A stretch of 64,000 nucleotides of DNA from Deltaproteobacteria bacterium (GCA_002709835.1 PAQX01000019.1:46197-110196), one strand, 5' to 3'; shown: positions 13,764 through 64,000, numbered from the stretch's first letter. Translations and numbers: made by a program. Notes: generated from the sequence alone by a model not told the origin.

Positions 13764-14507
13764 ATGGCGAATAATATCTACCACGGGGTCGTTCGAACAC
13801 GCGACCAGATCACTCCCAACATGCTGCGCTTCTCGCTCGAGAGCGAAGCGTTAAGCGATTTCCCAGACGGCTTTGAAGGCGGCTACGTAAAACTCGTTTT
13901 CCCGCGACCCGAGGCGAAACGACCCGCCATGAGGTCCTATACCGTTCGCTCCTTCGATCGCGGTGCCCGACAAGTCACTCTTGAGATGGTCACGCATGGC
14001 GATCTCGGACCTGCGGGTCGTTGGGCCGAACGCGCGAAGCTCGGCGATTCCATCGTCTTCGCCGGGCCAGGGCCCTGCCGCTCCGCGGACCCGAGCGCTG
14101 ATTGGTTCCTGCTAGCGGGCGACATGACAGCTCTACCAGCGATCTCTGTTCAACTTGAGAACCTCCCGCCAAACGCCGTCGGCGATGCGGTGATCGAGGT
14201 CATCAGCGACGAAGACCGTCGAAAAATCATCCGACCCGACGGCATTGAGGTCCACTGGATCACGAATCCGGAGCCGGCGCGCCCGAACTCTTTGCTCGCC
14301 GATGCTGTGATGAATCTGCCCTGGCGATCCGGCAGAGTGTCTGCTTGGATCGCCAGCGAGTTCGCAAATGCACGCGCACTACGGCAGTACATGCGACACG
14401 ACCGGGCCGTCGACCGCGATTCGCTCTACGTGAGCTGCTACTGGAAGATTGGCGATACCGATGAGGGGATGAAGGCGGCGAAGGGCTCAGATTCGGAGTC
14501 CTGGTAG
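13764..14507 (+). CDS. siderophore-interacting protein (SIP/ViuB-type flavin reductase)
   Basis: The ATG at 13764 follows GGAGAG. It has the FAD-binding RxYT motif (MRSYTVRS), LLAGDMTALPAI, WIASEFANARALRQYM and YWKIG, which together give the FAD_binding_9 + SIP layout. The longer 292-aa ORF was rejected. Confidence 0.85.
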   Translation: MANNIYHGVVRTRDQITPNMLRFSLESEALSDFPDGFEGGYVKLVFPRPEAKRPAMRSYTVRSFDRGARQVTLEMVTHGDLGPAGRWAERAKLGDSIVFAGPGPCRSADPSADWFLLAGDMTALPAISVQLENLPPNAVGDAVIEVISDEDRRKIIRPDGIEVHWITNPEPARPNSLLADAVMNLPWRSGRVSAWIASEFANARALRQYMRHDRAVDRDSLYVSCYWKIGDTDEGMKAAKGSDSESW

Positions 14508-14543
14508 TCGCCACGTCGCACGGCCTCCGAAGCGAAGGGCGGT

Positions 14544-15935
14544 TCAGCTTGACACAGGCGGCTCGGAGAGCGTCCGCTCATCAGGGTTGAAGAAGCGCAA
14601 GAAGCGCCAAGCGATCACGATGGCTTTGAGCGCCTCTTCAAAGATCAGTACATACCAGAGGCCGATTACGCCGAGCTGCCGGTCGACACATAGCCACCAT
14701 GCGAGCGGAAGACTGATCCCCCACATCATGAGCTGGGTCGCGATCACCGGAACCCGAACGTCCCCCATCGTTTTGAGTGAGTGGAAGAGCACCGTGTTCA
14801 CTGCGCTGAGGGGCTGCACAAAAATGGTTAGCCAGAGCAGACGACTCGCCTCGGCGAGCACGACCGGGTCGTCAGTAAAAAGGCCGAGCAGCGGATCCGC
14901 GGAAAGATAGAGCGCGACAGCGAGCCCCGTCGTGAGCACCGTCGCAACCCAGGAAGCGTGGAATGCCGCCGCGAATACCGATTTTTTCCGACCTGCGCCG
15001 AACCGGTAGCCGACCATGACCTCGTTCGCCTGGCTGATCGCCATGAGTACGACGATCAGGAAAGAGCTCAGCGCGAGGGTGAACGAGCGCGCGAGAACCA
15101 TCGCGACGTCGAACCGCGCGATGAAGCTCACGAGAAACATCTGGTAGACGCCGTAGGCTAGATTGTCAGCAGTCGTTGGGAACGAGATTTCGAGGAGATC
15201 CTTCAGGGTCTGCTTGAGTTGCGCACCTTCGAGCCAATCCCGGATCCGAACGCCGAGACTGCGCCACAAGACGAAGAGCAGGACGAACATGCCCTGCACC
15301 CGGACGATCAGGGTGGCGATCGCCGAGCCCGCGACACCGAGTTCAGGAAAGGGGCCGAACCCGAAGATCAGGAGCGAGGCTGCCAGCAAGTAGAGGGCAT
15401 ACGCGAAGATGCCTAGGAAGAGCAGCATCCTCGTCCGCCCGAAGCCACGGAGCGTCGCGGTACCCGCCATCATGACGCCGTTGAAAACGATCGTCGCCGA
15501 CGCGATCTGGAGATAGAGGACCGTGTCCTCGAATATCTCCGCCGGTGTGTTGATCCACGCCGCCATCGTCCGACCGGCCAGCAAGAGCGCCGACCCGAGC
15601 ACGAGGCTGAGCACGAAGTTCGCCGCGACGGTCGTGAGCGCGATCGAACGCGCCGCGTCCGCGTCGCCACGCCCGAGGGCGCGCGAGATCAGCGCGACAC
15701 CTCCGACCGCAAAAAGGACCGACAGGTCGTAGGCGACCAGCAGAATCTGGTTCGCGAGGCTGACGGCCGCCGCTGCGTTCGCGGAGTAGGAGCTGATCAG
15801 GATCGTGTCGATCAGCGTCACGATCATGCCGATCCCGGCGTTCAACAGGAGCGGATAGCTCAGCTGGAAGAGCGTCTTGTCCACGGCCTCCCCGGCCGCG
15901 GCGCGCGCTTCCCCGGGCTCGGCATCGGCGCTCAT
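14544..15935 (-). CDS. MATE-family efflux transporter (463 aa)
   Basis: Starts at the ATG at 15935 (MSADAEPGEARAAAGEAVDKTLFQLSYPLLLNAGIGMIV...). About 12 hydrophobic segments are present. The start overlaps the NRPS stop as ATGA (15932-15935). The 623-aa version in the ORF track is an Arg/Gly-rich artefact. Confidence 0.9.
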   Translation of the reverse strand: MSADAEPGEARAAAGEAVDKTLFQLSYPLLLNAGIGMIVTLIDTILISSYSANAAAAVSLANQILLVAYDLSVLFAVGGVALISRALGRGDADAARSIALTTVAANFVLSLVLGSALLLAGRTMAAWINTPAEIFEDTVLYLQIASATIVFNGVMMAGTATLRGFGRTRMLLFLGIFAYALYLLAASLLIFGFGPFPELGVAGSAIATLIVRVQGMFVLLFVLWRSLGVRIRDWLEGAQLKQTLKDLLEISFPTTADNLAYGVYQMFLVSFIARFDVAMVLARSFTLALSSFLIVVLMAISQANEVMVGYRFGAGRKKSVFAAAFHASWVATVLTTGLAVALYLSADPLLGLFTDDPVVLAEASRLLWLTIFVQPLSAVNTVLFHSLKTMGDVRVPVIATQLMMWGISLPLAWWLCVDRQLGVIGLWYVLIFEEALKAIVIAWRFLRFFNPDERTLSEPPVSS

Positions 15936-18900
15936 TCTTCGTTCCCGAATCGGACCTGGGCCAGGACCGCGGCGAGCTCCGAGGCTTCCAGGTCGTGACC
16001 GGGCACGGGCGCGTCTCCACCCTCGAGACACGCCGCCACCAACGCCTTGAGCGCCTGAACGGCTTCGTCCGCCACGCGCTCGATCAAATCGGGAGCGAGA
16101 TCCGTCGCGACGAATTCCCATTCCATCGTGACTTCCCCGCCGGAGATCCAAGCATTCAAGTCGAGGCGATGGGGGCGCTCGTTCCCCGCCGCAGCGCGCG
16201 GGCCCGGGACCGGCTCCCGAGAGAGCCCCTGGTCGTTCCCGCGCCCCGCGTCGAGTTGGCCGAGGTAGTTGAACCCGACCGCGGGTCGAACCGCGAGTGC
16301 CTCGCCGCCTTCCGAATAGCGAAGCAAGCCGTAGCCGAGGCCCTCCGCGGGCACCGCCTCGAGGGCGGACCGGACGTGGCGAACCCGCTCGATCGGCGCG
16401 GCGTCCTCGGGCCACTCGGGAGTGAACGGATGGAGCGCGGTGAACCAGCCGACCGTGCGCGACGCGTCGTACAGGATCTCGAGATCGCGGGCGTCTCGCC
16501 CGTGGGTCTCGACGGCGAGCGTCGGGGGCGGCGCGCCCGTCGTCTCGGCGAGGGCCGTCGCGGCGGACGTGAGCAGGAGCGTATGCGGATCGAATTCCGT
16601 CGCCCGCGGAATCTCGCGGGTCAGCCGCTCGGTCTCCGCGACCGGGAGGCGGCGCGTGATCGTCTCGACATCGCCATATCGCGTCGGCGCCGGCTCGGGC
16701 GCGCCCGGCATCGCCGTCCGCGCTTCCGCCACGACCGCGCGCCAGTAGTCGCGCTCGGCCTCGACAAGGGGGCGTGCCGCGACGAGGGCCTCGCTCCAGG
16801 CGCGAAAGCTGACCCCGCCCTGCAAGACGGGCAGATCCGGGAAGCGATAGGCGTGGCTCAGATCGTCGAGCAGGATCCGCCAGGACACCCCGTCGACGAT
16901 CAGGTGGTGGACCACGAATACGAGCAGCGGCCCTGCGCGTTCACCGCGGTCGAAGAGCGCGGCGCGGACGAGCGGTCCCGCCGAGAGATCGAGGCCCGCG
17001 TGCATCGCCGCGATCGCCGCGTGGAGCTCTGCATTGGATGCTCCACGGACGCGCTCGATCTCGAACGTCCCGAGCGACTCGGCATGGAACTGGCGCCAGC
17101 CCTCGTCGGTTCGCTCGAAGCGGAGACGAAGCGCCCCATGGGCCTCGAAGGTACGACGCGTCGCCTCGGCGAGGGCATCCACGTCGACTTTCCGGGGCAA
17201 ACCGATCGCGACGGCCTGGTTGAAATGCGCGGGACGTTCGGCCGGCCGCTCCAGGAACCACGACTGGATCGGCGTGAGCGGTACTTCGCCTTCCGCCGGC
17301 GGGGCCTCGGCGGGGACCGGGTTCGCGCGCCCGGCGACGAGCGCGAGCTCTTCGACCGTCTGGTACTGGAAGACGTCCGCTGGCGTGAGTCCCAGTCCGG
17401 CGCGGGCCGCAGCGCTCACGATCTGAAGCGCGATGATCGAGTCGCCGCCCGCCTCGAAGAAGTTGGTCTCGCGCCCGAGCGTCGGCTCGGGGAGGAAGGC
17501 GCGCCAGATCCCGAGCAGCGCGTCTTCGGTCGGGCTCTCTCCCTCGCTCGCGCCGGCCTCGACCGCGGACTCGGAGAAGGTCGGTCGGGGGAGCGCCTCG
17601 ATATCGACCTTGCCGTTCGGACCGAGGGGGAACGCGTCGACCCAGGTAAAGGAAGCGGGCATCATCTGCCGCGGCAGACGCGCGAGCAATTCGACCCGGA
17701 GCGAAGCCGAGGACGGACGAACGGTGTCCTCCGCCGGCAAGAGCCAGGCGACGAGCCGCCGCTCCGAGGCGGAGTCGCCCTCCGCACGGACCACCGCGTC
17801 GGCGATCGCCTGGTTCGAGACGAGGGCGCTCTCGATCTCGCCGGGTTCGATCCGGAAGCCCCGGACCTTCACCTGGTCGTCGATCCGACCGAGGAATTCG
17901 ACCACGCCATCCCTTCCGAACCGAACCCGGTCGCCCGTTCGATAGAGCGTGAGCGCGGCATCGTCGATCGCGTCGCGGCGCGGATCCAGGAAGGGGTTCG
18001 GGACGAAACGCTCGGCGGTCAGGGCCGGGCGCCGATGATAGGCGCGCGCCAACCCGTCTCCGCCGAGATAGAGCTCGCCGGGCACGCCCGGCGGAACCGG
18101 CTGCATCGACTCGTCGAGCACATAGACCTGCGTGAACCCGATCGGTCGACCGATCGGCGCGCTCGGCAGATCCGAACCCGGCGCGAGCTCGCTCGGCTCG
18201 AACCGATGGCAGCAGGTGAACGTCGTCCCCTCGGTCGGCCCGTAGCCGTTGATCAGTCGCGTGTTCGGCAGCGCCGCCTGCGCACGCCGAAGATGATCGA
18301 CCGAGAGCACGTCGCCCCCGGCGAGCAACTGCCGGACCGTCGCGAAGCGCTCGAGTCCATCGTCGACGACGAGGTGGAAGAGGCCAGCGGTCAGCCAGAG
18401 CGTCGTCACGCCGTGGTTCTCGACCAGCCCGCCGAGGGTCTCTAGCGCGAGCGGGCCCGACGTCTCCGCGTCCGGCAGGACGAGACAGCCGCCGTTCAGG
18501 AGCGGGCCCCAGATCTCGAGCGTCGACGCGTCGAAACCCATCGGCGCGGCGCCCAGGAAGACCTCGTCCGGACCGAAGTCGACGAAGCGATCCTGCTTCA
18601 CGAGACGCGTCACGCCGCGGTGGGGCACGGCGACGCCCTTCGGCGTTCCGGTCGAGCCCGAGGTGTACATGAGATAGGCGAGTCGATCGGGGCCCGAGGA
18701 GACCGCGAGCAAGGCATCCGCCGCCGCGTCGCCCGTGGACGGAACCGACGCGAGACAGAGCCACTCCGCCGCGAACGCTTCGGGGGCCGAGGCCCGGGTC
18801 GCGGACACGATCGTGCGAAGGTCCGCGTCCTCGATCGTCCACGCGATCCGAGCGGTCGGAAGACTCGTGTCCAGGGGAACGTAGACGCCGCCGATCTGGA

Positions 18901-21900
18901 GGGTCGCGATCATCGCCGCGATCGAATCGACGTGCCGCTCGGCCCAGAGCCCGACCGCCTGCTCGGGCCCGACGCCGCGCTCCGCGAGCGTCCGAGCGAT
19001 CGCGTCGGCCCGCCCTGCAAGTGCGCGGTAGGAAACGACCGCGTCGCCCTGACGAAGCGCGACCGCGTCCGGGGCCCGGGCGACCTGCTCGGCGAAGAGC
19101 GCGTGGATCGATTCGCGCGGACCGCGCGCGGTCTCCGCCGACCCGCCCCAGCGCGCGAGGGTTTCGGTCGCGGCTTCGTTCAGCAGTCCGAGGTTCGAGA
19201 GTCGAAGATCGACCGCGCCCGGAAGCCGCTCGAGGAAGTCGCCGAAGAGCGACACGAAGCGTTCGATCGTGCGCCGCTCGAAGAGATCCGTCCGGTATTC
19301 CAACTGACCGGCCAGCGCCTCCGGCGTCTCGCTCATCGTGAGGGTCCAATCGAACTTCGCCGTTCCGCTCTCGAGAGGCAGTGGGCGCCATTCGAGCCCT
19401 CCGACCTCGACCGCCTCGAAGGGCGCGTTCTCGAGGGTGAAGAGCACCTGGAAGGCCGGCGCGTGGCTCGCGCTGCGCGGCACCTCGAGCGCCTCCAGGA
19501 CCTGCTCGAAGGGCGCGCTCGCATGTTCGAAGGCCGCCAGGGTCATCGACCGCACGCGCTCCAGGATCTCGGTGAAGGCGGGATCGCCGTCGAGGTCGAC
19601 CCGAAGGACGAGGGTGTTCACGAAGAGCCCGATCAGGGATTCGACGTCGGGATGATTCCGGTTCGCGACCGGCGTGCCGATCGCCAGGTCCGTCTCCCCG
19701 GTCATGCGGTGGAGCGCCGCGGCGAAGGCCGAGAGCAGCGTCATGAAGAGGGTCGTGCCCTCACGCCGGGCGAGCGCCTGCAGCGCGTCGCCGGTCTCGC
19801 GCGAGAGCGTGAATCGAACCGTGTCGCCCTCGCCCGACGCTTCGACCGGGGGCGTGAAATCCGTCGGGAGCGAGAGGCGCGCGGGCAGACCGGCGAGGTG
19901 TCCCCGCCAGTAGTCGACGTGGCCGGAAACGTCGGCGTCTCGCGCCCAGGCGGTGTAGTCCGCGTACTGGATCGGCAGCGGCGGGAGCGAGGCGGCGTTC
20001 CCCTGCGCGCGGAATCCGTCGTACAGCGTCGCGACTTCGCGCACGAGGATCCCGATCGACCACCCGTCGACGAGGATGTGATGACAGTGGAAGACGAGAA
20101 CGTGCCGCGTGTCCGAGAGAGACAGGACCGTCATCCGCCAGAGCGGCGGATTGGCCAGGTCGAAGGGCTCGCGCGCGGCGCGGACCATCCAGTCCCGAAG
20201 CGCCGTCTCCCGGGCTTCGTTCGTCTCGCCTTCGATGAACGTCCGCCCGACGCGCACGGGAGACGAGGACGAGAGGACCGACACGAGCTCCCCGCCGCGC
20301 TCCTCGAAGTGGGTGCGCAGCATCTCGTGCCGATCGACCACGGTCTGCATCGCGAAATCGAGCGCGGCGAAGTCGATCTCCCCGTCGATCGAGATCGCCG
20401 TGGGGATCCCGTAGAGCGGGCTCTCGGGCGCGAGCTCCGCGAGGAGCCACTGGCGACGCTGCGCGTCGGAGACGGGTCCGAGCCCCTCCGGTCGCTCCGT
20501 TCGCGGAATCGGCGTCTTCGCATCGACCCCGACGTCCAGGGTCTCGACCGCGTCGGCGAAATCGTCGAAGCGCGAGTGCTCGAAGAGAACGCGCAAGGGA
20601 ATCTCGGTTCCGAGGAGCTGGGAGAGGCGCGAGACCAGACGGGTCGCCGTCAGCGAGTGACCGCCCAGCTCGAAGAAGTCGTGGTCGGCGTCGACCTCCG
20701 GGACGTCGAGCAGCTCGCAGAAGACGCCGGCGATCAACTGCGCCCGCGGCGAGCGCTCGCGGGTCGAGGCCAGACCCTCGGCGGGCGCGCCGACCTCCGA
20801 CGCGCCATCCGCCTGGCCGAGGAGGGCCCGCCGGTCGATCTTTCGATTCGGCGTGAGCGGGAAGGCATCCACCGCGAGGAAGCGCGCGGGCACCATGTAG
20901 TCTGGCAAGCGTTCGCGCAGGTCCCGCCGAAGGGCGGCCGGGTCGAGGCGTTCGGAGGCGCGAAGGAACGCGACCAGGCGCGCACCTGACGTCCCCGCTT
21001 CCTGGAGCAGCACGACGGCCTCGTCGACGTCCGATCGCGCGAGCAGGACCGCTTCGATCTCGCCGAGCTCGATCCGGAAGCCGCGTAGCTTGACCTGCGA
21101 GTCCATGCGCCCCACGAAGTCGAGCAGGCCGTCTTCGCGACGCCGGACGAGATCCCCGGTCCGGTAGAGACGCGTCGGCGCCCCGTCCCCGGCTTCCACT
21201 TCGAGGAAGCGGTCGTCCGTCAGTTCGGCGCGCTGCCAGTAGCCCGCGCTCAGGCCTTCGCCGCCGATCAACAGCTCGCCCAGGGCGCCGACGGGCACGC
21301 GTCGAAGCGCGGGATCGACGACACGGAGTTCGGTCTCGGCGATCGGGGGACCGATCGGCACGAACTCGCCCGAGGCGAGCGTCTCCTCTATCCGGAGCGC
21401 CGCAGACCAGATCGTCGTCTCCGTCGGACCGTAGAGATTCCACAGTTCGGCGGATCGCTCGAGGAGCGATCGCGCCAGATCGCCCGGCAGGGCTTCGCCG
21501 CCACAGAGCACACGCAGAGACGCCCTTCCCTTCCAGCCGCTCTCGACGAGCAGCCGCCAGGTCGCGGGCGTGGCCTGCATGACGGTGACGGCCTCGCGGA
21601 CGAGCCCTTCGATCAGTCGCGGCCCGTCTCGCGCTTCCTCCGCACTCGCCAGCACGACGCGTGCGCCGACCGTGAGCGGAAGCAGAAGCTCGAGGATCGA
21701 GATGTCGAAGGAGATCGTCGTGACCGCGAGCAGCACATCGTCCGCGCCGAGCCCGGGTTCCCGCGCCATGGAAGCGAGGAAGTTCTCGAGCGCACCGTGG
21801 GAAATCGCGACACCCTTCGGCTTCCCCGTGCTGCCGCTCGTATAGAGGACGTACGCCAGCGCGGCGCGGTCGACGGTCGGCAAGGTCTCCACTCGCGGCG

Positions 21901-28437: not shown

Positions 28438-28450
28438 CCGCCGCCGTGTC

Positions 28451-51562: not shown

Positions 51563-51604
51563 GGGCTTGAGTCTACTCGGGCCGGCCCGCTGTTCGCAAC
51601 CCGA

Positions 51605-51632
51605 TTGCATACTAATCTCGGCATGTTATATC
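51605..51632 (+). promoter_or_regulatory. candidate sigma70-type promoter for the plus-strand operon
   Basis: TTGCAT (51605-51610), a 16-nt spacer, then TATATC (51627-51632). It lies in the most AT-rich patch of the intergenic region, about 240 nt upstream of the ATG at 51874. Pattern match only. Confidence 0.25.
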
Positions 51633-51873
51633 ATTCTCACACCCACGGCGCTCGCCATTAGACATCCACTAAGAGACCAGTCCTCGGCGTCTCGGCGTCG
51701 AGCCTCGTCTTGAGTCTTCCGAACATCTCCGTCCTCGCGAGCGCACCCGCGCCGAGGGTCTGCATGTTGGTGTTGCGGCGACTTTTCGCCCTTACGCTGC
51801 TTCTGACGCTCAGCGATTTGCTCTCGTGCTCGCGTTGATTCGCGCCGCGGTGGCGGACTGATGTCCTCTTTTC

Positions 51874-55284: not shown

Positions 55285-58200
55285 ATGTGCGCTCCTCCGG
55301 ACGTTTGAACCCGACGACGACCTTCGAGCCGCTGTGGAATCAGTGGTACGCGTGGAGCTATCTGATCCCGCCCGCCTCCGCGTCGCGGTATCTGACCGAA
55401 TCCCATCTCGCGACGCTGCAGTCCTTCGCGGATGCGCCCGAAATACACGTCGAGGCGCTCCGCGATCCGGCGATGCGCGGCGGTCCCTTCATCGAATACG
55501 GCGTCGATCGCGCGGACGAGATCCGGGCGTTGTTCACCCGCACGACCGCGAAAACCACAGCCTTGGCGAACCTGAGTCTCGCAATCCGTAATCTCGAGGC
55601 GAAGCTGTCGGCCTATCCGCGCGGCATGTCCCTCGAACCGCTCTACGACGAGATCCCCGAACCCCTTCGCGGCTTCGTCGAACTCGTCTATGACGCCCGG
55701 GACAGCGCTGCCATCCGCTTCATCGAGCCGATGCTCTACCGGAGCGAGTTCTACGACCCCTCGCTCCAGACGATCGCGCTGCAGCGAATGGACGATCCCG
55801 ACACCCGCGGCTTCGTGCTGAGCACGCCGCGCCTCGAGGCCGACCTCGACTGCCATCTGCCGATCCCCTTCGACGACGCGCGCATCGATGCCCTCGCGCG
55901 TACCCGTCGCGAAGCGCGGGTGATCGGCGAACTCGCCGAAGAACTCGGGATCGGCGCCGCTGAACTTGATCGTTTCGCAGCACTCTTCACCGAGACGAAG
56001 GCGCCCGAAGCCGGCGTCCGTGCCGAAGGCGTCCGCGTCCGATACCTGGGTCATGCTTGCGTTCTCCTCGAGACCCGAGACGTCACGATCCTCGTCGACC
56101 CGCTGATTCCCTACGCAAGCGCAACCGGAATCGATCGAATCTCGTACGACGATCTGCCGGAGCGGCTAGATTACGTTCTGATCACTCACAACCATCAGGA
56201 CCACGTGATGCTGGAGACCCTTCTCCAGCTGCGCCACCGGATCGGCACGGTCGTCGTCCCGCGTTCCCAGAAGGGCTCGATCCTCGACCCGTCGATGCGT
56301 CTATGCCTGAAGCGGATCGGCTTCCGGAGCGTTCGGGAGATAGACGAGCTGGACGCAATCGACCTCCCCGATGGTGAGATCGTTTCGCTTCCCGTACTCG
56401 GGGAACACGGAGACCTGAACATCGGGGCGAAGAGCGCCTACTGGATCCGCGTCCTAGGACGATCGATCGTGTGCGCCGCCGACTCGAACAGCATCGACGA
56501 CCGACTCTACGCCCACTTCCGCCAGCTACTCGGCCGACCGGATCTCCTCTTCATCGGCATGGAGTGCGACGGCGCCCCCTTTACCTGGTCCTATGGGCCG
56601 ATCCTGCCCACGCCGGTGCCCCAGCGGATCGCGAAGTCCCGCCGCCTCGACGGCTCGGACGCCGAGCGCGCTCTGCGGATCGTCGACGCGCTCGATCCGA
56701 GCGCCGTCTACGTTTACGCGATGGGCGGCGAACCGTGGCTGACCTTCATCACATCGATCGCTTATACCGAAACGTCGCGCCCGATCGTCGCGTCGAACCG
56801 ATTCGTCGAAGCCTGCCACGAGCGCGGCCTCGACAGCGCGCGCCTCCTCGGGCGACGGGACTTCCACTTGACGCCCGGCAACGGGACCACCGCCCCCTCC
56901 GCGGCCCCGCTCCCGGCTCGGCTCGACCCGAACCTCGAGGCGTCGCCGCAGCCGGTCGCCGCGTCTAAGCGCCCCTCGGAAACCGCCAGTGCAGTCTCGG
57001 CCCGTCGCGATGGCAAAGGTCAGAAGCTAACGGCGCTCCTCGCGGAGCTCGAGTCTCTGGACGTCCGCTTACACGTCGACGGCGAGCAGCTGAAGGTGAA
57101 CTCGCCGAAGGGCGCGCTGACCGACACGCTCAAAGCCGCGCTGAAGGAGCACAAGGCGGCGATCGTGGCGCTCATCTCGGGCGGCCGCGATAGCGAGGCG
57201 AAGGCCGGACCGGAAGATGAGCGCCCCGCGCACGAGGGTGCCGAAGACGTTCGTCTTGCCGCGGACCTCGTCGTCGCGAGTTCGCGCACCCCGCGCCACG
57301 ACACCACGCCGAGCGAGATCCTCCTGACGGGCGCCACGGGTTTCCTCGGCGCCTATCTCATGGACGCGCTGCTCGAACGGACCGACGCCCGCATCACCTG
57401 CCTCGTCCGATCGGACTCCACCGAAGCCGGACTCGAGCGGATCGCGGAGGCCTTCTCGCTCTACGCCCTGGACTCCGGGCGCCTTGAAGCGCGGATCGAC
57501 GTGCTCCCGAGCGACCTCACGAAGCCCCGCCTTGGGCTCGACGAAGCGACCTTCGATCGACTCGCGTGCGAAATCGACGTGATCCATCACGCCGGCGCCA
57601 TGGTGCACCACGCTTCACCCTACTCGCAGCTCCGCGACGCGAACGTCGACGGCACCCGTCGGATCCTCGAACTCGCGGCGGCGGGCGGCGGCCTCCCGGT
57701 CCACTACGTCTCGACCCTGAGCGTCCTCCCGCCCCGTCCATTCCCCGGGAAGACCCGCTTCCACGAGCACGATCCGATCGACGCGTTTCCGGTACCGGCC
57801 GGCGGCTACAACCTGAGCAAGTGGGTCGCGGAGCATCTCGTCGTCGACGCCCGCCGCGCAGGGATTCCGGTCTCGGTCTACCGGCCCGGTCCGGTTTCCG
57901 GCGACCAGCGCACGGGCGCCTTCAATCGCGACGACTTCCTCTACCGCTTGATGTCGGGATACCTGCAGTCGGGCCTCGCGCCGGACGGCGAGACCTCCCT
58001 CGACATGCTGCCTGTCGACTTCGTTGCCGAGACGATCGTCGCGCTGGCGGACGATCCGGATTCCCTTGGACAGACCTTCCACCTTCTCCACCCGAATCCC
58101 GCCTCCTCGGAGATCCTCTTCGAGGTCTGCCGTGAAGCGGGTCATCCGATCAAACGCGTGCCCTATCAGCGCTGGTTCGAACACCTGACCGAAATCGCGA

Positions 58201-58451
58201 AGCACGACGAGAACCATCCGCTCTATCCGCTCGTAGGGCTCTTCTCGTCGCGCTCCGGACGAAGCGATTCGGCCCCAGCGCCGGAAGGGCCGCCTGAGCT
58301 GCCATTCGAGACGGCGAACCTGCACGCGGGCCTTCTCCGCGTCGGTCTCGAGATCCCGCCCCTCGATCACGCGCTCTTCCATACCTACGTGGGCGCGATG
58401 CTCCCCGCCGAGGGCGAAGACGTGCGGCGCGCGATCGGAGGCGAGCGATGA
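55281..58451 (+). CDS. three-part fusion: CmlA-type non-heme diiron beta-hydroxylase (MBL fold), internal docking domain, thioester reductase (R) domain (1056 aa)
   Basis: One uninterrupted ORF. The GTG start overlaps the upstream stop (GTGA). The MBL core has THNHQDH (nt 56184-56204; H303, H305, D307, H308), LGEHGD (E375) and CAADSN (D401). Then a Pro/Ala/Ser linker and a docking domain at aa 581-634. The R domain runs from aa 680: LLTGATGFLGAYL, RITCLVR, HHAGAMV, YNLSK. No T, C or A domain. Confidence 0.85.
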   Translation: MNVRSSGRLNPTTTFEPLWNQWYAWSYLIPPASASRYLTESHLATLQSFADAPEIHVEALRDPAMRGGPFIEYGVDRADEIRALFTRTTAKTTALANLSLAIRNLEAKLSAYPRGMSLEPLYDEIPEPLRGFVELVYDARDSAAIRFIEPMLYRSEFYDPSLQTIALQRMDDPDTRGFVLSTPRLEADLDCHLPIPFDDARIDALARTRREARVIGELAEELGIGAAELDRFAALFTETKAPEAGVRAEGVRVRYLGHACVLLETRDVTILVDPLIPYASATGIDRISYDDLPERLDYVLITHNHQDHVMLETLLQLRHRIGTVVVPRSQKGSILDPSMRLCLKRIGFRSVREIDELDAIDLPDGEIVSLPVLGEHGDLNIGAKSAYWIRVLGRSIVCAADSNSIDDRLYAHFRQLLGRPDLLFIGMECDGAPFTWSYGPILPTPVPQRIAKSRRLDGSDAERALRIVDALDPSAVYVYAMGGEPWLTFITSIAYTETSRPIVASNRFVEACHERGLDSARLLGRRDFHLTPGNGTTAPSAAPLPARLDPNLEASPQPVAASKRPSETASAVSARRDGKGQKLTALLAELESLDVRLHVDGEQLKVNSPKGALTDTLKAALKEHKAAIVALISGGRDSEAKAGPEDERPAHEGAEDVRLAADLVVASSRTPRHDTTPSEILLTGATGFLGAYLMDALLERTDARITCLVRSDSTEAGLERIAEAFSLYALDSGRLEARIDVLPSDLTKPRLGLDEATFDRLACEIDVIHHAGAMVHHASPYSQLRDANVDGTRRILELAAAGGGLPVHYVSTLSVLPPRPFPGKTRFHEHDPIDAFPVPAGGYNLSKWVAEHLVVDARRAGIPVSVYRPGPVSGDQRTGAFNRDDFLYRLMSGYLQSGLAPDGETSLDMLPVDFVAETIVALADDPDSLGQTFHLLHPNPASSEILFEVCREAGHPIKRVPYQRWFEHLTEIAKHDENHPLYPLVGLFSSRSGRSDSAPAPEGPPELPFETANLHAGLLRVGLEIPPLDHALFHTYVGAMLPAEGEDVRRAIGGER
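57021..57183 (+). other. TubC_N-type docking domain, copy 2 (internal to the fusion protein)
   Basis: QKLTALLAELESLDVRLHVDGEQLKVNSPKGALTDTLKAALKEHKAAIVALISG. Hand alignment with copy 1 gives 19 identical positions over 51 ungapped residues, including VRL, PK.AL and KA.I. Confidence 0.7.
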
Positions 58452-59302
58452 GCGCGCGCTATGACCGATACGACGGTTGGGCCTCGCTCTACAACGCCAC
58501 GATGGGGCCCGAGTACGGGCACGCGCAGTTCGAGATCGTCGAGAGACTGATCCTTCCGTCGATTCCCGCGCGCGCGACGATCCTCGACCTCTGCTGTGGG
58601 ACCGGCCAGCTTCTTACCCCACTCGCGGAAGCAGGCTACGCGGTCACCGGTCTCGACGGCTCGACCGAGATGCTCCGCTTCGCCGCGGAGAACGCCCCCG
58701 ACGCGAAGCTCGTCGCGGAAGACGCTCGGGAGTTCCGTAATCCCGAAGCGTTCGACGCAGTGGTGTCGACGAGCGCCTCGCTCAATCACGTGGGCTCTCT
58801 CGATGATCTCCAGTGCGTGTTCGGAAACGTCTTCGCCTCCCTCCGTCCGGGCGGCGGCTTCCTCTTCGACCTGAATCACCCCGCCCAGCTCGAACGCTGG
58901 TGGAACGGTCGCCCCACCGAAGGCGAGATCGACCGACACCTGGCCTGGATGATCACCCCCGAGTACGACGCCGCCCGGAGTGAGGGCCGCTTCACGGTCA
59001 CCGTCTACAGCGCACCCGAAGCCTCAATCCGCCCCTGGAAGACCCCGCTCTACCGACTCCTATCGCTTCCACGCTTCATCGGGCTCCGCCTGTGCGCAAT
59101 CGGCCGCTTCGATCGACTCGAACCTGAATGGGCGCGAGATTCCATGGCTTTCCCCGTTTTCGGCCACTCCATCGACGGCGTCCGCGAACGACTGGAGCGT
59201 GTCGGGTTCGATGATATTTGCGTCGAGACCGCCGACGGCATGCCTCTCGACGAAAACCACTCCGCGCATTTCGTCTGTCGGAAGCCTTCGGAGGACGCGT
59301 AG
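58448..59302 (+). CDS. class I SAM-dependent methyltransferase (284 aa)
   Basis: Motif I ILDLCCGTGQL, post-I VTGLDGS, motif II FDAVVS, and LRPGGGFLF. Joined to the upstream gene by an ATGA overlap. Confidence 0.85.
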   Translation: MSARYDRYDGWASLYNATMGPEYGHAQFEIVERLILPSIPARATILDLCCGTGQLLTPLAEAGYAVTGLDGSTEMLRFAAENAPDAKLVAEDAREFRNPEAFDAVVSTSASLNHVGSLDDLQCVFGNVFASLRPGGGFLFDLNHPAQLERWWNGRPTEGEIDRHLAWMITPEYDAARSEGRFTVTVYSAPEASIRPWKTPLYRLLSLPRFIGLRLCAIGRFDRLEPEWARDSMAFPVFGHSIDGVRERLERVGFDDICVETADGMPLDENHSAHFVCRKPSEDA

Positions 59303-60774
59303 TGAGCAAGGCGACGAAGCAGAACCGCGAACCGGGCGCGGCACAGCTCCGCGCGCAGCTGATCTCCGAGCTCGGCGCGCGCACGAGCAAGTCGAAGGCC
59401 TACGCCGAAGAGCACCGACTGCACCACGCGGACAAGAGCTCGATCGGCGCGGACTTCGACCCGCGCCTCAAGGAGATCTTCTACCCGATTGTGACGACAC
59501 GGGCCGAGGGTGCCCACTTGTGGGACCTCGATGGCAATCGCTACGTCGACATACTCCAGGGGCTCGGGGCAAACCTCTTCGGACACAACCCTGACTTCGT
59601 CCGCGAGGCGATCGCCAGCCAGCTCGAGGACGGTTTCCCAGTGGGACCCCAGACACCGCTCGCCGGCGAAGTCGCCCGCCAGGCGGCTCGCCTAACCGGA
59701 GCCGATCGCGTCTGCTTCAGCGTGACCGGGACAGAAGCCGTGATGACAGCGATCCGTCTCGCGCGAACCTCGACCGGCCGCAACAAGATCGTAGTGTTCA
59801 CCGACTCCTATCATGGCCATTCCGACGCCGTGCTTAATCGAGCTTCGATCGTCGAGTACGCACGCCGCAAGGTTCAGGGTGCTCTCGCCAGCCGCGGGGC
59901 GCCCGGAGCGATCGTCGAAGCGCTTCGCCGCCCCCTGCGGACCCGCGGCGTCCCCGCGGTGCCGGGCATCCCCGGTTCCGTCGCTCGTGACGCCCTCGTA
60001 CTCGAATACGACAACCCGCGTTCCCTCGACGTGATTCGACGCAACCGGAAAAAAATCGCGGCGGTGATAGTCGAACCCGTTCAGAGCCGCTGCCCCGAAC
60101 GCCAGCCCGTCGAGTTCCTCAGGGATCTGCGAGCGGTCACCCGAGAACACGACATCGCCCTCGTCTTCGACGAAATGGTGACCGGATTTCGAACCCACCC
60201 CGCCGGTGCACACGGCCTCTTCGAGATCGAGCCCGATATCGCAACCTACAGCAAGGTCGCGGGAGGAGGGCTTCCGCTTTCCCTGATCGCGGGTTCCGCG
60301 CGCTACCTCGACGCCATCGACGGCGGCGCCTGGCGCTTCGGCGACGAGTCTGCGCCGGAGGTCCAAACCACCTTCTTCGCCGGCACCTTCGCGAAGCATC
60401 CACTCTCCCTGCGCGCCGCTCACGCGGTTTTCTCGCGCTTGCTCGATGAAGGACCGGCCTTCCAGGCAGGTCTGACCGAAAAGACGGCGGCACTGGTAGA
60501 GCGGATCAACCACACGACCAAGGCTGAGGGTCTGCCGGTCCGGTTCACGCACTTCGGATCCTTCTTCGCGATCGCGCTGAGCGAAAGCCGCATGGATCCG
60601 CACGCCGTGGTGCTTCTCTCTTATTGGCTTCTTCGCGAGGGAATCTTCCTTCGCCCCGGAGACAAAGGCGGCTTTCTGACCACTGCACATGACGAGCAGG
60701 ACACCCACGCGATCGCGACGGCCTTCGAAGGTGGGATTCGAGCCTTGCGAGACGCACACGTATTGCCGGCTTGA
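59302..60774 (+). CDS. class-III PLP-dependent aminotransferase (glutamate-1-semialdehyde aminomutase-like)
   Basis: A GTG start at 59302 (TAGTG junction with the methyltransferase stop) gives 490 aa. Motifs: HLWDLDGNRYVD, GFPVGPQTPLAGEVA, SVTGTEAVMTAIRLAR, VIVEPVQ, LVFDEMVTGFR, and the PLP lysine in ATYSKVAGGGLP. The upstream part of the listed 518-aa ORF overlaps the methyltransferase. Confidence 0.9.
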   Translation: MSKATKQNREPGAAQLRAQLISELGARTSKSKAYAEEHRLHHADKSSIGADFDPRLKEIFYPIVTTRAEGAHLWDLDGNRYVDILQGLGANLFGHNPDFVREAIASQLEDGFPVGPQTPLAGEVARQAARLTGADRVCFSVTGTEAVMTAIRLARTSTGRNKIVVFTDSYHGHSDAVLNRASIVEYARRKVQGALASRGAPGAIVEALRRPLRTRGVPAVPGIPGSVARDALVLEYDNPRSLDVIRRNRKKIAAVIVEPVQSRCPERQPVEFLRDLRAVTREHDIALVFDEMVTGFRTHPAGAHGLFEIEPDIATYSKVAGGGLPLSLIAGSARYLDAIDGGAWRFGDESAPEVQTTFFAGTFAKHPLSLRAAHAVFSRLLDEGPAFQAGLTEKTAALVERINHTTKAEGLPVRFTHFGSFFAIALSESRMDPHAVVLLSYWLLREGIFLRPGDKGGFLTTAHDEQDTHAIATAFEGGIRALRDAHVLPA

Positions 60775-60831: not shown

Positions 60832-61056
60832 ATGAGTGAAACGAATACGACGGACAGCGCGATCTTTTCGGTCGTCGTCAGCGAAGAAGGTCGTTACTCC
60901 ATCTGGCCAGAATACAAGGAGATCCCCTGGGGTTGGCGGGCAGATGGCAAGCGCGGATCGAAGGCTGAATGCCTCGACTACATCGAAACCGTGTGGACGG
61001 ATATGCGCCCCTTGAGCCTTCGCCGTGCGATGGACAAAGACACCTCGAGCAACTAG
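60832..61056 (+). CDS. MbtH-like protein (74 aa)
   Basis: Signature [13 protein letters not shown] ... [14 protein letters not shown] (three conserved Trp and the PxGW motif). Confidence 0.9.
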
Positions 61057-61077
61057 CGGCGAACGAGCAGAGTCACG

Positions 61078-61563
61078 ATGGAACCCATGCCCGAAGAGCG
61101 CGATAAGACGACCGAGGAACCGCAGGTTCTCGATCTAGTCGCACCGTGGAATCTTCCGCTCGCGCTCGACCTCGGCGATCGTGAGCGCGAGACGATCGCG
61201 GCTACGCTCACGGAGCTCAACGCGGAGCTCGCGTCCGAGCAGCCTCGCTCGCAAGCCCTCGAGAAGCTGATCGAGCGCTTCCCAACGCCAACTGTCCAGA
61301 GGCACTCGATCACGGACACCAAGTCGAACCTCACGTCCGAAGACGTCGAGTCGTACGACCGCTACTTCGAGGTTCGGCACGTCGATACAGAATCGCCCGC
61401 GCGCTCGATCGTGCGCAGTCTGCTCATGACCTGCCATTCTTTCCTTTCACTGCGTGAGACCGGCTTCTCGTTCGATTCCGAACAAGTCGCCCTGCAGACG
61501 ACGGGTTTCCGCGAGCATGCGCGTCTGATCGCGCGGATCTGCGGAATCGCACTGGAGCGCTGA
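61078..61563 (+). CDS. hypothetical protein (161 aa), acidic N-terminal half
   Basis: The ORF has ordinary composition and sits in operon context. Its stop overlaps the next start (TGATG). No family recognised. Confidence 0.5.
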   Translation: MEPMPEERDKTTEEPQVLDLVAPWNLPLALDLGDRERETIAATLTELNAELASEQPRSQALEKLIERFPTPTVQRHSITDTKSNLTSEDVESYDRYFEVRHVDTESPARSIVRSLLMTCHSFLSLRETGFSFDSEQVALQTTGFREHARLIARICGIALER

Positions 61564-62192
61564 TGTCGACTTTCGCTCCGAACATGTCGACACCGTCGGC
61601 AATTGAGCTCTGGAAGCGTTTCCACTGGGCGTTCTTCGTGAACACCCAGGGGCTCCTCATGGCGCTCTCTCGATTCGAGCGTTTCGTGGAAACGGAAGAC
61701 TTCGAGGGTGCTCGGCGAGAGATGGCCGCTGCCGCGACGCTCATGCGGGCCTCGGGCGCGTCGATGCAGTTGGCAGGCAGCTTCACCCGGCAGGAATACA
61801 AGGACCAAGTCCGACCATCGATGATGCCCCCGGAGCTGGAGGTCGCGGGATTCAGCGGCCTCATGTCCTGGGATCACGCGAGCTTGATCGAACTCTGGCG
61901 ACGACTCAGCCCGATCTTCGCTTCGCTGCCTGACGTACTCAAGCACGAGTATGAGGACTTCGTAGCCGCCTACGGCACGCTTGCTGACTCGCATAGTGCA
62001 GTCTGCTCACGCTTCGTCGCGAAGGGCGAGGGCTCGATCCGCTACGAGGGCGATGAAGCCATCGAGTCCTTGTCCCGATTCCGCAAGGGACGGGAGGCGA
62101 TGATCGCTCCGCAGGGACGCGTGAGTGGCTGCCCCGCCCACGGCGCACCGGCGACGCACCGCGACGAAGCGGACGACGACATCGAGAGCTGA
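61563..62192 (+). CDS. hypothetical helical protein (209 aa), possible distant tryptophan-2,3-dioxygenase-superfamily (heme) fold
   Basis: Translationally coupled ORF. By-eye resemblance to TDO landmarks: ELWKRF (the ELW helix), YKDQVRP...AGFSGLMSWDHASLIE (compare F.xFR..L.P.SGFQS.QfR.lE), and SHSAVCSRFVAKGEGS (compare the proximal-His region H...V.R.iG.K.GTGGSS). The functional call has low confidence. Confidence 0.5.
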   Translation: MSTFAPNMSTPSAIELWKRFHWAFFVNTQGLLMALSRFERFVETEDFEGARREMAAAATLMRASGASMQLAGSFTRQEYKDQVRPSMMPPELEVAGFSGLMSWDHASLIELWRRLSPIFASLPDVLKHEYEDFVAAYGTLADSHSAVCSRFVAKGEGSIRYEGDEAIESLSRFRKGREAMIAPQGRVSGCPAHGAPATHRDEADDDIES

Positions 62193-62194
62193 AG

Positions 62195-64000
62195 ATGTCG
62201 CGCGAAGCCATCCCTCACGACCGTATCGAAGATGTCTATCCGCTGACCCCGACTCAGCAAGGCATGCTCTTCCACGACCTGATGCATCCGAACTCCGGTG
62301 TCTACGTCGTGCAGGTTTCATTCACGGTTTACGGCGCGATAAACGAAGCGGCCTTCGCCGAGACCTGGCGTGCGCTCCAGAAACGGCATCCCGTCCTCCG
62401 GACCGCCTTCGCGTGGGAAGGACTAGCCCGCCCGATGCAGGTCGTTGGACGCGAGGCGCCGGTCGGGATCACGGACGTCGATGCGCGAGGAACGAGCGAG
62501 CGCGAACGGAACTCGTTGCTCGAGGGCTGGCTGGCCGAGGACCTCTCGCAGGGCTTCGACCCGAGCCGCGCGCCGCTCATGCGCGTCGCACGGATCCGGT
62601 TGGACGAGAGAACGACCCGTATCGTCTGGACCTATCATCATCTCCTCCTCGACGGCTGGTCTCTTCCTCTCCTGCTCGGCGAGTGGATCGCCTGTTACCA
62701 GGCCGCGGCCCGAAACGAGTCACCGCCCCTGGGTGAAGCGCCGCGCTACCGGGAGTTCGTCGACTGGCTGGAGGCGCAGGACCAGGCGGCAAGCCGTGCC
62801 TACTGGACGGAAGCTCTCGAAGGTTGCACCCCTACCCACGTGAGCGGCGGCCATCGCGACCCGAAGGAGACGCGTCAGGCGCGAACGATCCGAACCCTCA
62901 AACCCGAGACGACCGCGCGGCTCCGGGCCTTTGCCCGAGCCGAACGCGTCACCCAGAGCACCGTCCTTCAGGCCGCCTACGGTCTCGTACTGGGACGCCA
63001 CTGCGAGCAGGACGACGTTCTATTCGGCCTCGCCCGATCGGGCCGTCCCCACGCCCTCGATCGGATCGACGAACGCATCGGTCTCTTCCTCAATCTGCTG
63101 CCGACACGAGTGGAACGGCACGAGGTGGCGACGATCGGGGACTGGCTGCGCGCGCTCCAGGCACGCTTCGTCGAGCAGCAACGCTTCGAATACTCCTCGC
63201 TCCGCGACGTCCACGTCGCGAGCGGGGTCGCGGCGGATCAGCAGCTCTTTTCGTCGATTCTCGTCTTCGAGAACTACCCGACCCTTGAGGGGGGAAGCGA
63301 GGATGTCCCGAGCGACGGCCTCAGGATCTGCGACGTCGACGTCCGCGAGCACACGAACTACCCGCTCAATCTCTACATCTCGGGCACCGACGCCCTTGAG
63401 CTTCGACTGCTCTATGGACTCGGCCACTTCACTTCCTCGGAAGCAGACCGCCTCGTCGGCCAGATCGCTTCGACGTTAGACGCGATCATCCAGGACGGCT
63501 CGCGCCAAGTCGGCTCGCTGACTGCCGCCTCCCTCGCGGAGATCCACGAGGCGCACGTCGCCCCAAACTCGACACGTAGGGACTCTCAGCCCGAGTCCGT
63601 TCTCGAGTCGTTTCGGAAGCAGGTCACCAGCGGGCCGACACATCCCGCGCTCGTCTGCGGGGATACGCGACTCGACTACACCACGCTCGCGCGAGAAGTA
63701 GCCGCTATCGCTGAACGCTTGCGCGCCACGGGGATCGGCGAAGGCCGCCTCGTCGGAATCTGTCTTCCGCGAACGGCCCGCCTCCCGATCGCTCTCCTCG
63801 CGGTACTTTCAACCGGCGCCGCTTACGTTCCGCTCGACCCGTCGTTCCCCGAACAGCGCCTGCGCCAGATCGTAGAAGACTCCGGGATCGCCTCGGTGCT
63901 CGTCGACGACGCAACTGAAGCGCTCGCACGATCTCTCGGCGCGGCGCCGGTCCGCGTGGACGCGGACAACGAAGCGCCCTGCTTCGAGCTCGGCGAGGCT
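62195..64000 (+). CDS. NRPS, partial: C(DCL-type)-A... (3' end lies outside the window)
   Basis: Not in the ORF track because it has no stop. Frame 2 is open from the ATG at 62195 to the window edge (602 codons, checked by hand at both ends). MSREAIPHDRIEDVYPLTPTQQGMLFH, YHHLLLDGWS, then the start of an A domain (LVCGDTRLDYTTLAREV...LLAVLSTGAAYVPLDPSFPEQRL). Confidence 0.9.
   Translation, partial: MSREAIPHDRIEDVYPLTPTQQGMLFHDLMHPNSGVYVVQVSFTVYGAINEAAFAETWRALQKRHPVLRTAFAWEGLARPMQVVGREAPVGITDVDARGTSERERNSLLEGWLAEDLSQGFDPSRAPLMRVARIRLDERTTRIVWTYHHLLLDGWSLPLLLGEWIACYQAAARNESPPLGEAPRYREFVDWLEAQDQAASRAYWTEALEGCTPTHVSGGHRDPKETRQARTIRTLKPETTARLRAFARAERVTQSTVLQAAYGLVLGRHCEQDDVLFGLARSGRPHALDRIDERIGLFLNLLPTRVERHEVATIGDWLRALQARFVEQQRFEYSSLRDVHVASGVAADQQLFSSILVFENYPTLEGGSEDVPSDGLRICDVDVREHTNYPLNLYISGTDALELRLLYGLGHFTSSEADRLVGQIASTLDAIIQDGSRQVGSLTAASLAEIHEAHVAPNSTRRDSQPESVLESFRKQVTSGPTHPALVCGDTRLDYTTLAREVAAIAERLRATGIGEGRLVGICLPRTARLPIALLAVLSTGAAYVPLDPSFPEQRLRQIVEDSGIASVLVDDATEALARSLGAAPVRVDADNEAPCFELGEA

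Follow-up and report, generated by a model that had tools for sequence, protein, structure and literature searches.

The 64,000-nt stretch analysed here, referred to below as the window, comes from an assembly assigned to a Deltaproteobacteria bacterium (GCA_002709835.1, PAQX01000019.1:46197-110196). Between positions 13764 and 64000, Pfam and NCBIfam scans of long open reading frames (ORFs) delineate a biosynthetic locus of about 50 kb, which is arranged in two divergent operons and extends past the window end. We propose, with a probability of about 0.8, that this cluster makes a lipidated polyketide-peptide siderophore of the fabrubactin/anachelin (Dmaq) family and that it lies on a tRNA-Arg island of an uncultured marine Myxococcota-type bacterium. 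The minus-strand operon runs from 51368 to 14544 and encodes a loading didomain made of a fatty-acid--AMP ligase (FAAL) and an acyl carrier protein (ACP), three polyketide synthases (PKS1, PKS2 and PKS3), a luciferase-like monooxygenase (LLM), two nonribosomal peptide synthetases (NRPS_A and NRPS_B) and a MATE efflux pump. The plus-strand operon, which begins at 51874, encodes NRPS_C, an ORF joining a CmlA-like domain, a docking domain and a reductase, a methyltransferase, an aminotransferase, an MbtH-like protein, two small ORFs and NRPS_D. Neighbouring genes share 1-4 nt at several junctions, and the G+C content of the window is approximately 66-70%. Every gene named in a preliminary description of the sequence was recovered by Pfam and NCBIfam, as was nearly every domain. 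The judgement that the locus corresponds to no characterised pathway was not supported, since the plus-strand genes form a predicted Dmaq cassette and the layout is syntenic with a fabrubactin-type cluster of Agrobacterium.

The predicted Dmaq cassette and its relatives

The features of the plus operon are as follows (C, condensation; A, adenylation; T, thiolation; LCL and DCL, types of C domain).

51874-55284, plus: NRPS_C, predicted Dmaq (L-DOPA-type) module, TubC_N docking-C(LCL)-A-T, tail ...REEMAL (Pfam)
55281-58451, plus: fusion ORF of 1056 aa (Pfam CmlA_N, metallo-beta-lactamase fold, TubC_N and reductase)
58448-59302, plus: class I S-adenosylmethionine (SAM) methyltransferase, predicted Dmaq N,N-dimethylase (Pfam)
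59302-60774, plus: class III (HemL/MxcL-like) aminotransferase (Pfam Aminotran_3, NCBIfam)
60832-61056, plus: MbtH-like protein (Pfam MbtH, E 7e-20)
61078-61563, plus: FbnL-like subunit of a two-protein heme tyrosine hydroxylase (Agrobacterium counterpart at the same position, 26% identity, E 1.5e-11)
61563-62192, plus: FbnM-like subunit, counterpart of the SfmD C-terminal half (PDB 6VDP, PF27188)
62195-64000, plus: NRPS_D, C(DCL)-A(Gly)-T, cut by the window end (Pfam; N-terminus IEDVYPLTPTQQGMLFH)

The two small ORFs, which had previously been left as unknowns, were identified as a split heme tyrosine hydroxylase of the FbnL/FbnM type. The FbnM-like protein aligned to residues 182-354 of SfmD (6VDP) with an E value of 7e-15 and kept the heme His/His/Cys residues; other heme tyrosine hydroxylases matched more weakly. 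The FbnL-like ORF has a weak precomputed match to PF27188. An equivalence of FbnL to the N-terminal half of SfmD was tried and rejected, no similarity being detected. According to PMC12971057, the antiSMASH rule for NRP metallophores uses FbnL and FbnM genes together with an NRPS. An adjacent pair of FbnL-like and FbnM-like genes co-located with NRPS genes, as in a Dmaq-type NRP metallophore, was found here by homology. Several proteins of the window have exact copies among the NCBI MAG proteins MBB82890-MBB82916, labelled "Deltaproteobacteria bacterium", where the LLM and also the FbnM-like protein bear the name "siderophore biosynthesis protein".

In the anachelin cluster, genes for Red, MT, AmT and TyrH have been assigned to Dmaq formation (PMC4247773). 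Two further hallmarks of the family were observed in the window. The first is a predicted DOPA-type terminal module served by a thioester reductase, as indicated by the A code, the TIGR01746 match and the docking tail and domain. The second is a class III aminotransferase together with a SAM methyltransferase, which stand in the same order in the related loci L009, L011, L013 and L017. The best NCBIfam match of the methyltransferase is a daptide amine methyltransferase, which scored under its cutoff. The specificity code of the NRPS_C A domain, DGPTLGAVNK, is identical in L011, and DAPTLGAVNK is found in Agrobacterium, Acaryochloris, Anabaena and the TARA contig L009; the Dmaq-module code D[A/G]PTLGAVNK is thus common to six clusters from four phyla. 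This shared code indicates that NRPS_C is a predicted L-DOPA-type module, an assignment that follows the fabrubactin literature. As judged from these genes, the pair of small ORFs together with NRPS_C, the reductase, the methyltransferase, the aminotransferase and MbtH is the predicted cassette for a Dmaq catechol chelator.

A tblastn search of plasmids with the FbnM-like protein matched Agrobacterium and Allorhizobium megaplasmids as well as cyanobacterial plasmids, and the region on pAtAF1_95 of A. tumefaciens AF1/95 (NZ_CP124965, L008) was taken as the comparison locus. Its genes for MATE, NRPS, LLM, PKS and FAAL-ACP diverge from an NRPS (C-A-T-R, 1522 aa; R, reductase), which is followed by methyltransferase, aminotransferase, MbtH, two siderophore-biosynthesis proteins, PKS, NRPS and NRPS. 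The window has the same divergent two-operon layout and the same gene order on both strands. In the minus operon, identities were 62% for the LLM, 42% over the full length for PKS3 against PKS1520, and 37% for FAAL; in the plus operon they were 56% for the aminotransferase, 56% for MbtH, 47% for FbnM, 44% for the reductase, 42% for the methyltransferase and 26% for FbnL. NRPS_C is 44.5% identical over its full length to the C-A-T part of the C-A-T-R protein, and the A codes of the two Dmaq modules agree at 9 of 10 positions.

Although the two loci share this framework, the window differs from the fabrubactin-type cluster in several respects. It has two additional PKS modules with dehydratase (DH), C-methyltransferase (cMT), enoylreductase (ER) and ketoreductase (KR) domains after the FAAL, modules for D-Asn, Gly and D-Val in place of a single Gly NRPS, and, before the second PKS, a Gly module that has been relocated (NRPS_D). 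The C-A-T-R protein is split, with a CmlA-like hydroxylase and a docking domain inserted before the reductase, and the locus is bordered by tRNA-Arg and an integrase remnant. The host is a marine Myxococcota-type metagenome-assembled genome (MAG), whereas Agrobacterium is a rhizobial alpha-proteobacterium. The search for a characterised biosynthetic gene cluster of the same content, proposed in the preliminary description, therefore had a mixed outcome: a related cluster exists, but the gene and domain content is not that of the characterised fabrubactin cluster (PKS1, PKS2, NRPS_A, NRPS_B, NRPS_D and the CmlA-docking insertion are extra). With about six extra modules and the hydroxylase fusion, the locus is a variant and not a copy, an enlarged form of the fabrubactin-type cluster within the Dmaq siderophore family. 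Its product is probably more lipophilic.

The cyanobacterial relatives resemble the window in the cassette and differ from it elsewhere. In the anachelin-type clusters of Anabaena sp. CCY 9402-a (L017) and TARA L009, the same split cassette was found (TubC_N-C-A-T, CmlA-docking-R, methyltransferase, aminotransferase, FbnL and FbnM), and the A code and C-terminal docking tails match those of the window. In these lines the upstream NRPS genes are collinear with the cassette, unlike in the window, and no FAAL or LLM was seen within the 10-kb flanks of L017 and L009. The anachelin cluster described from Anabaena cylindrica PCC 7122 starts from salicylate (PMC4247773). Release in the myxochelin pathway, by the MxcG reductase and the MxcL aminotransferase, follows the same logic of converting an aldehyde to an amine, and MxcG is the best full-protein NCBIfam model for the reductase region, although its equivalog score of 258 bits is far under the cutoff of 2300. 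What sets the window apart from myxochelin is the predicted fate of the amine, namely dimethylation and cyclisation onto a catechol.

A CmlA-like hydroxylase fused to a thioester reductase

The diiron hydroxylase had been described as a separate gene; it is in fact fused to the reductase in a single ORF, 55281-58451, with the following domains.

about 55302-56864, plus: CmlA/FrsH-like diiron beta-hydroxylase domain (PF18456, E 3e-73)
about 57034-57174, plus: TubC_N docking domain (Pfam)
about 57319-58394, plus: thioester reductase (TIGR01746, 326.9 bits)

The hydroxylase part combines CmlA_N with a diiron domain of the metallo-beta-lactamase fold, as in enzymes of the CmlA/FrsH type. It gives full-length alignments (residues 9-528) with the non-heme diiron monooxygenase of PDB 8A90 (E 9e-133), which we take to be FrsH, the FR900359 enzyme, and with CmlA (4JO0, E 1e-117), and the HxHxDH motif is kept as HNHQDH. 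CmlA of the chloramphenicol pathway and 8A90 are stand-alone beta-hydroxylases that depend on a carrier protein, whereas in the window the domain shares one protein with a docking domain and a terminal thioester reductase. The fusion architecture occurs in at least 120 sequence clusters at the 90% identity level, which are 44-56% identical to the window protein and mostly cyanobacterial; a few come from Burkholderiales, Pseudomonadales and Aquincola. Wherever the locus was examined (L009, L011 and L017), the fusion sits in a Dmaq cassette, and one of its carriers is an Anabaena cluster whose NRPS layout resembles that of anachelin.

Agrobacterium and Acaryochloris marina have the unsplit C-A-T-R form without a CmlA domain. 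As Agrobacterium makes Dmaq, according to the literature, the hydroxylase is evidently not required for Dmaq. No literature linking CmlA-type enzymes to anachelin or Dmaq pathways was found, and in anachelin as published, the carbon at which a beta-hydroxylase would act bears no hydroxyl. It is no more than suggestive that the hydroxylase is fused to a docking domain that should bind the NRPS_C tail. On the simplest reading, the CmlA-like domain would act as a beta-hydroxylase on the residue that NRPS_C carries. The stronger proposal, that the domain, joined to the reductase by a beta-hairpin docking domain, carries out an undescribed on-line step in the synthesis of the catechol chelator, either beta-hydroxylation of tethered DOPA or a cryptic oxidation required for closing the ring in cassettes of the split type, is tentative, and we consider it well short of an even chance. 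If true, beta-hydroxylation of DOPA would lead to a new 4-hydroxy-Dmaq or aromatised quinolinium ligand class.

The assembly line and the proposed order of its modules

The minus operon and the gene next to it comprise the following features (KS, ketosynthase; AT, acyltransferase; E, epimerisation).

49161-51368, minus: FAAL-ACP loading didomain (Pfam AMP-binding and PP-binding; NCBIfam fatty-acid--AMP ligase families)
41634-49157, minus: PKS1, KS-AT(malonyl)-DH-cMT-ER-KR(Tyr to His)-ACP (Pfam, motifs, KR against EryKR1)
34192-41637, minus: PKS2, KS-AT(malonyl)-DH-cMT-ER-KR(Tyr to His)-ACP (Pfam, motifs, KR alignment)
29536-34158, minus: PKS3, KS-AT(malonyl)-KR-like-ACP, the KR-like domain with a degenerate NADPH loop (Pfam)
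28451-29524, minus: LLM, FMN-dependent luciferase-like monooxygenase, FbnE/Atu3671 ortholog (TIGR04020)
23698-28437, minus: NRPS_A, coiled-coil docking region-C-A(Asn)-T-E (Pfam, A code)
15932-23698, minus: NRPS_B, C(DCL)-A(Gly)-T-C(LCL)-A(Val)-T-E, start ATG at 23698 (Pfam, A codes)
14544-15935, minus: MATE efflux pump, start overlapping the NRPS_B stop as ATGA (Pfam MatE, E 2.8e-38)
13764-14507, plus: siderophore-interacting protein (SIP), ViuB-type ferric-siderophore reductase family (Pfam SIP, E 1.4e-33; FAD_binding_9, E 1e-24)

The FAAL-ACP start proposed earlier is borne out by the AMP-binding and PP-binding domains, by the NCBIfam assignment and by the FAAL-specific insertion, which is visible in the FAAL alignment. 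By gene content, the FAAL-ACP starter is one that the window shares with the fbn cluster, in which the corresponding FbnG used C10:0 in vitro (PMC11837247). The motif GHSxG...HAFH was observed in all three AT domains, which marks them as malonyl-type and supports, at the domain level, methyl branches derived from SAM. For PKS1 and PKS2, earlier described as two fully reducing, C-methylating modules, the domain set was confirmed; full reduction was not. Alignments to EryKR1 and 8G7W place His at the catalytic Tyr position of the short-chain dehydrogenase/reductase fold in the KR of PKS1 (42258-42980) and of PKS2 (approximately residues 2055-2295), within the motifs GQTNHAAAN and GQAAHVAAN, respectively. 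In a survey of this motif among the 150 best library matches, Tyr occurred in 283 of 288 cases and His in 4, of which two or three adjoin a cMT domain. This substitution means that the term "fully reducing" is not secure; such an activity of PKS1 and PKS2 is plausible and unproven.

The third module, PKS3, has the KS-AT-KR-like domain set that had been described, as seen by Pfam, and its KS active-site motif is QTGCSTS. The adjacent LLM scored 491.9 bits against NCBIfam TIGR04020 "MupA/Atu3671", for which the cutoff is 244; we take FbnE to be Atu3671. In the literature, the fabrubactin genes are placed at Atu3663-Atu3691, and PMC12971057 describes FbnE as a flavin monooxygenase and proposed source of two alpha-hydroxycarboxylate ligands in fabrubactin. 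The KR-like domains of PKS3, PKSx (see below), PKS1520 and PKS1477 keep the Tyr/Asn motif, and in all four the TGGxGxxG NADPH loop is lost, which fits a retained beta-keto group that could serve as the substrate of the flavin monooxygenase. The pairing of an FbnE-type FMN monooxygenase with PKS modules of the KS-AT-KR*-ACP form, a characteristic of the fbn cluster, was thus found in the window.

For the NRPS modules, the A codes and the E-domain motifs agree with the D-Asn, Gly and D-Val assignments made earlier. The Stachelhaus code of NRPS_A is DATKVGEVGK (Asn), and those of NRPS_B are DILQLGLIWK (Gly) and DALWLGGTFK (Val). These codes were confirmed by motif-anchored extraction, and the GrsA reference used for alignment reproduced the canonical DAWTIAAICK. 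Both proteins terminate in an E domain and a COM-like tail, with the E motifs PIQ, HHWAVDAWS, EGHGR, RTTGWFT and LNYLGR in NRPS_A and HHLIVDGVSW, RTVGWF and FNYLGQ in NRPS_B. The C domain of NRPS_A is closest to that of Agrobacterium NRPS1128.

The cluster is incomplete at the window edge, as had been noted, and NRPS_D runs off the window end. The continuation is supplied by contig L014, which matches the window at 99.92% over an overlap of 2506 nt; everything said here about sequence past 64 kb rests on this 14.8-kb contig, which ends inside NRPS_E. In L014, the full NRPS_D has 1094 aa, with the domains C-A(Gly, DILQLGVIWK)-T and a basic C-terminal tail. It is followed by PKSx (3982-8520 of L014; 1512 aa), with the domains KS(VQTACSSS)-AT(HAFH)-KR-like-ACP, and by NRPS_E, which has at least 2112 aa. 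The counterparts in Agrobacterium are PKS1477 for PKSx (45% identity) and NRPS2399 for the N-terminus of NRPS_E (48% identity). The insertion of NRPS_D aside, the plus operon therefore keeps the gene order of the Agrobacterium cluster. With the partial NRPS_D as query, a search of genome contigs returned only a Myxococcota MAG (69% identical), whereas no match was obtained among metagenome contigs and the protein search gave only generic NRPS at up to 41% identity.

The preliminary description had led the chain from the minus operon to the plus strand and there through at least two more modules, of which the window holds one complete NRPS module and one truncated module. This order is probably wrong. 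The first C domain of NRPS_B, which starts with YPLAPMQSGMLFH, and the C domain of NRPS_D share the start YPL(A/T)P(M/T)Q(S/Q)GMLFH and cluster at 253 bits, versus about 100 bits to others. C domains with this start are of the DCL type, which follows E domains; all other C domains in the cluster are of the LCL type. With the E-domain ends of NRPS_A and NRPS_B, the DCL domains suggest that the natural path is NRPS_A to NRPS_B to NRPS_D. The Dmaq modules of all relatives end in ...REE(I/M/F)x(L/I), and in collinear clusters the preceding modules carry the tail ...KEIEL or ...KEISL. No window protein carries a tail of the ...KEI(E/S)L type; the docking partner of the NRPS_C N-terminus must therefore lie beyond 64 kb. 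L009 and L017, two collinear relatives, have the Dmaq module and the reductase at the end. Together, these observations suggest that NRPS_C and the reductase form the terminal module, acting after modules beyond 64 kb. No thioesterase domain was found in the cluster within the window, and the presence of the thioester reductase domain agrees with the reductive release that had been predicted.

From these assignments we propose the following pathway. The FAAL-ACP would load a fatty acid, to which PKS1 and PKS2 would add two malonyl units with C-methylation by SAM, giving an alkane only if the KRs with Tyr replaced by His are active. PKS3 would add a third malonyl unit, the beta-keto group of which, by analogy with fabrubactin, may be reworked by the FbnE-type monooxygenase to an alpha-hydroxycarboxylate ligand. 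After addition of D-Asn, Gly and D-Val by NRPS_A and NRPS_B, the chain would cross to NRPS_D, with its DCL C domain and Gly specificity, and then reach PKSx, a putative second FbnE-type unit, followed by NRPS_E and modules beyond the window, with NRPS_C as the last module. In the termination phase, the FbnL/FbnM-like proteins would oxidise Tyr to L-DOPA, which NRPS_C would load; the docked CmlA-like domain would probably beta-hydroxylate the tethered residue, and the fused reductase would release an aldehyde. The aminotransferase would turn this aldehyde into an amine and the methyltransferase would dimethylate it, and oxidation of the catechol with ring closure would give a Dmaq-type quinolinium catechol. 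The predicted product has three bidentate iron ligands, would be exported by the MATE pump and would release its iron through the SIP reductase.

Alternative readings, genomic setting and significance

Several points weigh against the assignment of the cluster to a Dmaq-family siderophore. No TonB-dependent receptor was found within the 64-kb window, and the best match to the Fur-box consensus in the divergent promoter, 11 of 19 positions, is not above background. The FbnL family gave no match in PDB, the N-terminal half of SfmD included, with either a single sequence or a 7-sequence profile. The aligned KR domains of PKS1 and PKS2 are without the catalytic Tyr, and the relatives with an unsplit C-A-T-R protein do not share the CmlA domain. 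The end of the assembly line is outside the data, and the hand-over to NRPS_C is inferred. The fbn cluster of Agrobacterium fabrum C58 is represented here by the pAtAF1_95 cluster, which was called fabrubactin-type from its annotation, the chemistry of FbnE and Dmaq is taken from secondary citations, and no product of the cluster itself has been characterised.

Four other readings were compared with this assignment. A fabrubactin-like scaffold could have a role other than iron uptake, for example as a lipopeptide antibiotic that bears a catechol, as a toxin or in the chelation of some other metal. The missing receptor and Fur box would fit such a role, as would a location on a mobile island and the resemblance of a long methyl-branched lipid with D-amino acids to membrane-active lipopeptides. 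However, a siderophore-interacting reductase adjoins the exporter, all three predicted ligand-forming systems of fabrubactin are kept, and uptake genes may lie elsewhere on the 112,484-bp source contig, of which 64 kb are considered here. Amphiphilic siderophores are also common in marine bacteria, and we regard a non-iron role as unlikely.

If the locus were an orphan lipopeptide pathway, read collinearly from the minus operon through NRPS_C to NRPS_D and further modules, it would yield an aldehyde or amine product of no characterised family. The domain inventory behind this view is correct, no characterised cluster of identical content was found, and reductive release with transamination is also known outside siderophore pathways. 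Against it, gene-by-gene synteny and identities of 42-62% tie the locus to the Agrobacterium fabrubactin-type cluster, and the Dmaq cassette is conserved. Moreover, the LCL-type C domain of NRPS_C is unfit to follow the terminal E domain of NRPS_B, the C domain of NRPS_D is of the DCL type, and the reductase is predicted to dock on the NRPS_C tail. This reading appears quite improbable.

We give very little credit to a third possibility, two independent pathways placed back to back, with a lipopeptide made by the minus operon and a separate Dmaq peptide by the plus operon. The operons do diverge from one promoter region, and the minus operon opens with its own loading module. Yet the minus operon lacks a release domain, and the E domain at its end calls for a DCL partner, for which NRPS_D offers the only free DCL domain. 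A loading module is missing from the plus operon, and the same split layout is found in Agrobacterium and L011. Finally, a pathway to tetrahydroisoquinolines of the saframycin type, which would combine a cryptic fatty-acyl primer with an SfmD hydroxylase, a methyltransferase and a Pictet-Spengler module of the reductive kind, is hardly credible: the SfmD match and the presence of FAAL, reductase domain and methyltransferase recall it, but SfmD is a single protein (336-365 aa) that acts as a 3-methyl-L-tyrosine peroxygenase in a different pathway context, whereas the window has the split FbnL/FbnM form, a single methyltransferase orthologous to that of the Dmaq cassette, an NRPS_C code that matches Dmaq modules, and an aminotransferase, LLM and PKS modules that have no place in such pathways. 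The combination of single-chain SfmD, C- and O-methyltransferases and a Pictet-Spengler C-A-T-R module was not found.

The cluster has the following left-hand surroundings and central promoter.

11950-12026, plus: tRNA-Arg(TCG) (Rfam 68.7 bits, ARAGORN)
12037-12462, minus: truncated tyrosine recombinase, an integrase remnant, 141-aa C-terminal fragment (Pfam Phage_integrase, profile 90-170/172, E 3.5e-12)
51369-51873: divergent promoter region between the FAAL-ACP and NRPS_C genes (sequence)

In this region, between positions of about 12 and 14 kb, the GC content drops to 0.55-0.59, and the SIP gene and the cluster come next. Together, the tRNA-Arg, the integrase remnant and the low GC look like the likely left border of a genomic island. 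A search of the window and of L014 for an att repeat of the tRNA-Arg gave none. The cluster was probably acquired horizontally, as indicated by this border and by cassette genes with affinities to cyanobacteria and alpha-proteobacteria. Among the genomes of the GTDB set, a Myxococcota MAG comes closest; its plus operon is syntenic, with proteins 69-81% identical. Fragments that are nearly identical to the window were seen in several marine assemblies from Tara Oceans and elsewhere.

The SIP gene flanks the MATE gene and, as the first gene of the 13764-64000 range, had gone unnamed in the preliminary description; its ORF opens at a TTG at 13629. Between it and the integrase remnant, a putative ORF at 12911-13231 would encode a hydrophobic protein of 106 aa with no family match. 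A second tRNA-Arg reported by ARAGORN (96 nt, 44622-44717) lies inside the PKS1 coding sequence, is without Rfam support and was rejected as almost certainly a false positive. Upstream of the tRNA, the region 1597-11606 encodes a TauD-family dioxygenase, an amidohydrolase, a SnoaL-like protein, an alpha/beta hydrolase, a sulfotransferase, a fatty-acid hydroxylase, a short-chain dehydrogenase/reductase and a beta-lactamase-family protein, probably a separate metabolic locus of the host. In the divergent promoter, a perfect 8-bp inverted repeat, CTGTTGCG-cgaaa-CGCAACAG, was observed at about 51543-51563; from its sequence, it may be a candidate regulator binding site.

The Dmaq siderophore family and its logic have already been published; what is new here is the host lineage, the added modules and two enzymological features, the role of the CmlA-docking-reductase fusion and the replacement of the KR Tyr by His. 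These raise the questions of what a hydroxylase-docking-reductase fusion does in Dmaq pathways and whether ketoreductases with His in place of Tyr are active. An apparent orphan thereby becomes a testable target, for which the predictions comprise three ligand groups, the peptide stretch D-Asn-Gly-D-Val-Gly and a branched lipid. Iron limits growth in much of the ocean, and the occurrence of this population in several Tara Oceans samples suggests that the product could be an ecologically relevant amphiphilic siderophore. To our knowledge, almost no metallophores have been characterised from marine Myxococcota. If the CmlA step holds true, then, combined with a methyl-branched lipid, it would make the product an amphiphilic marine siderophore of a new kind, from a phylum in which few metallophores are known.

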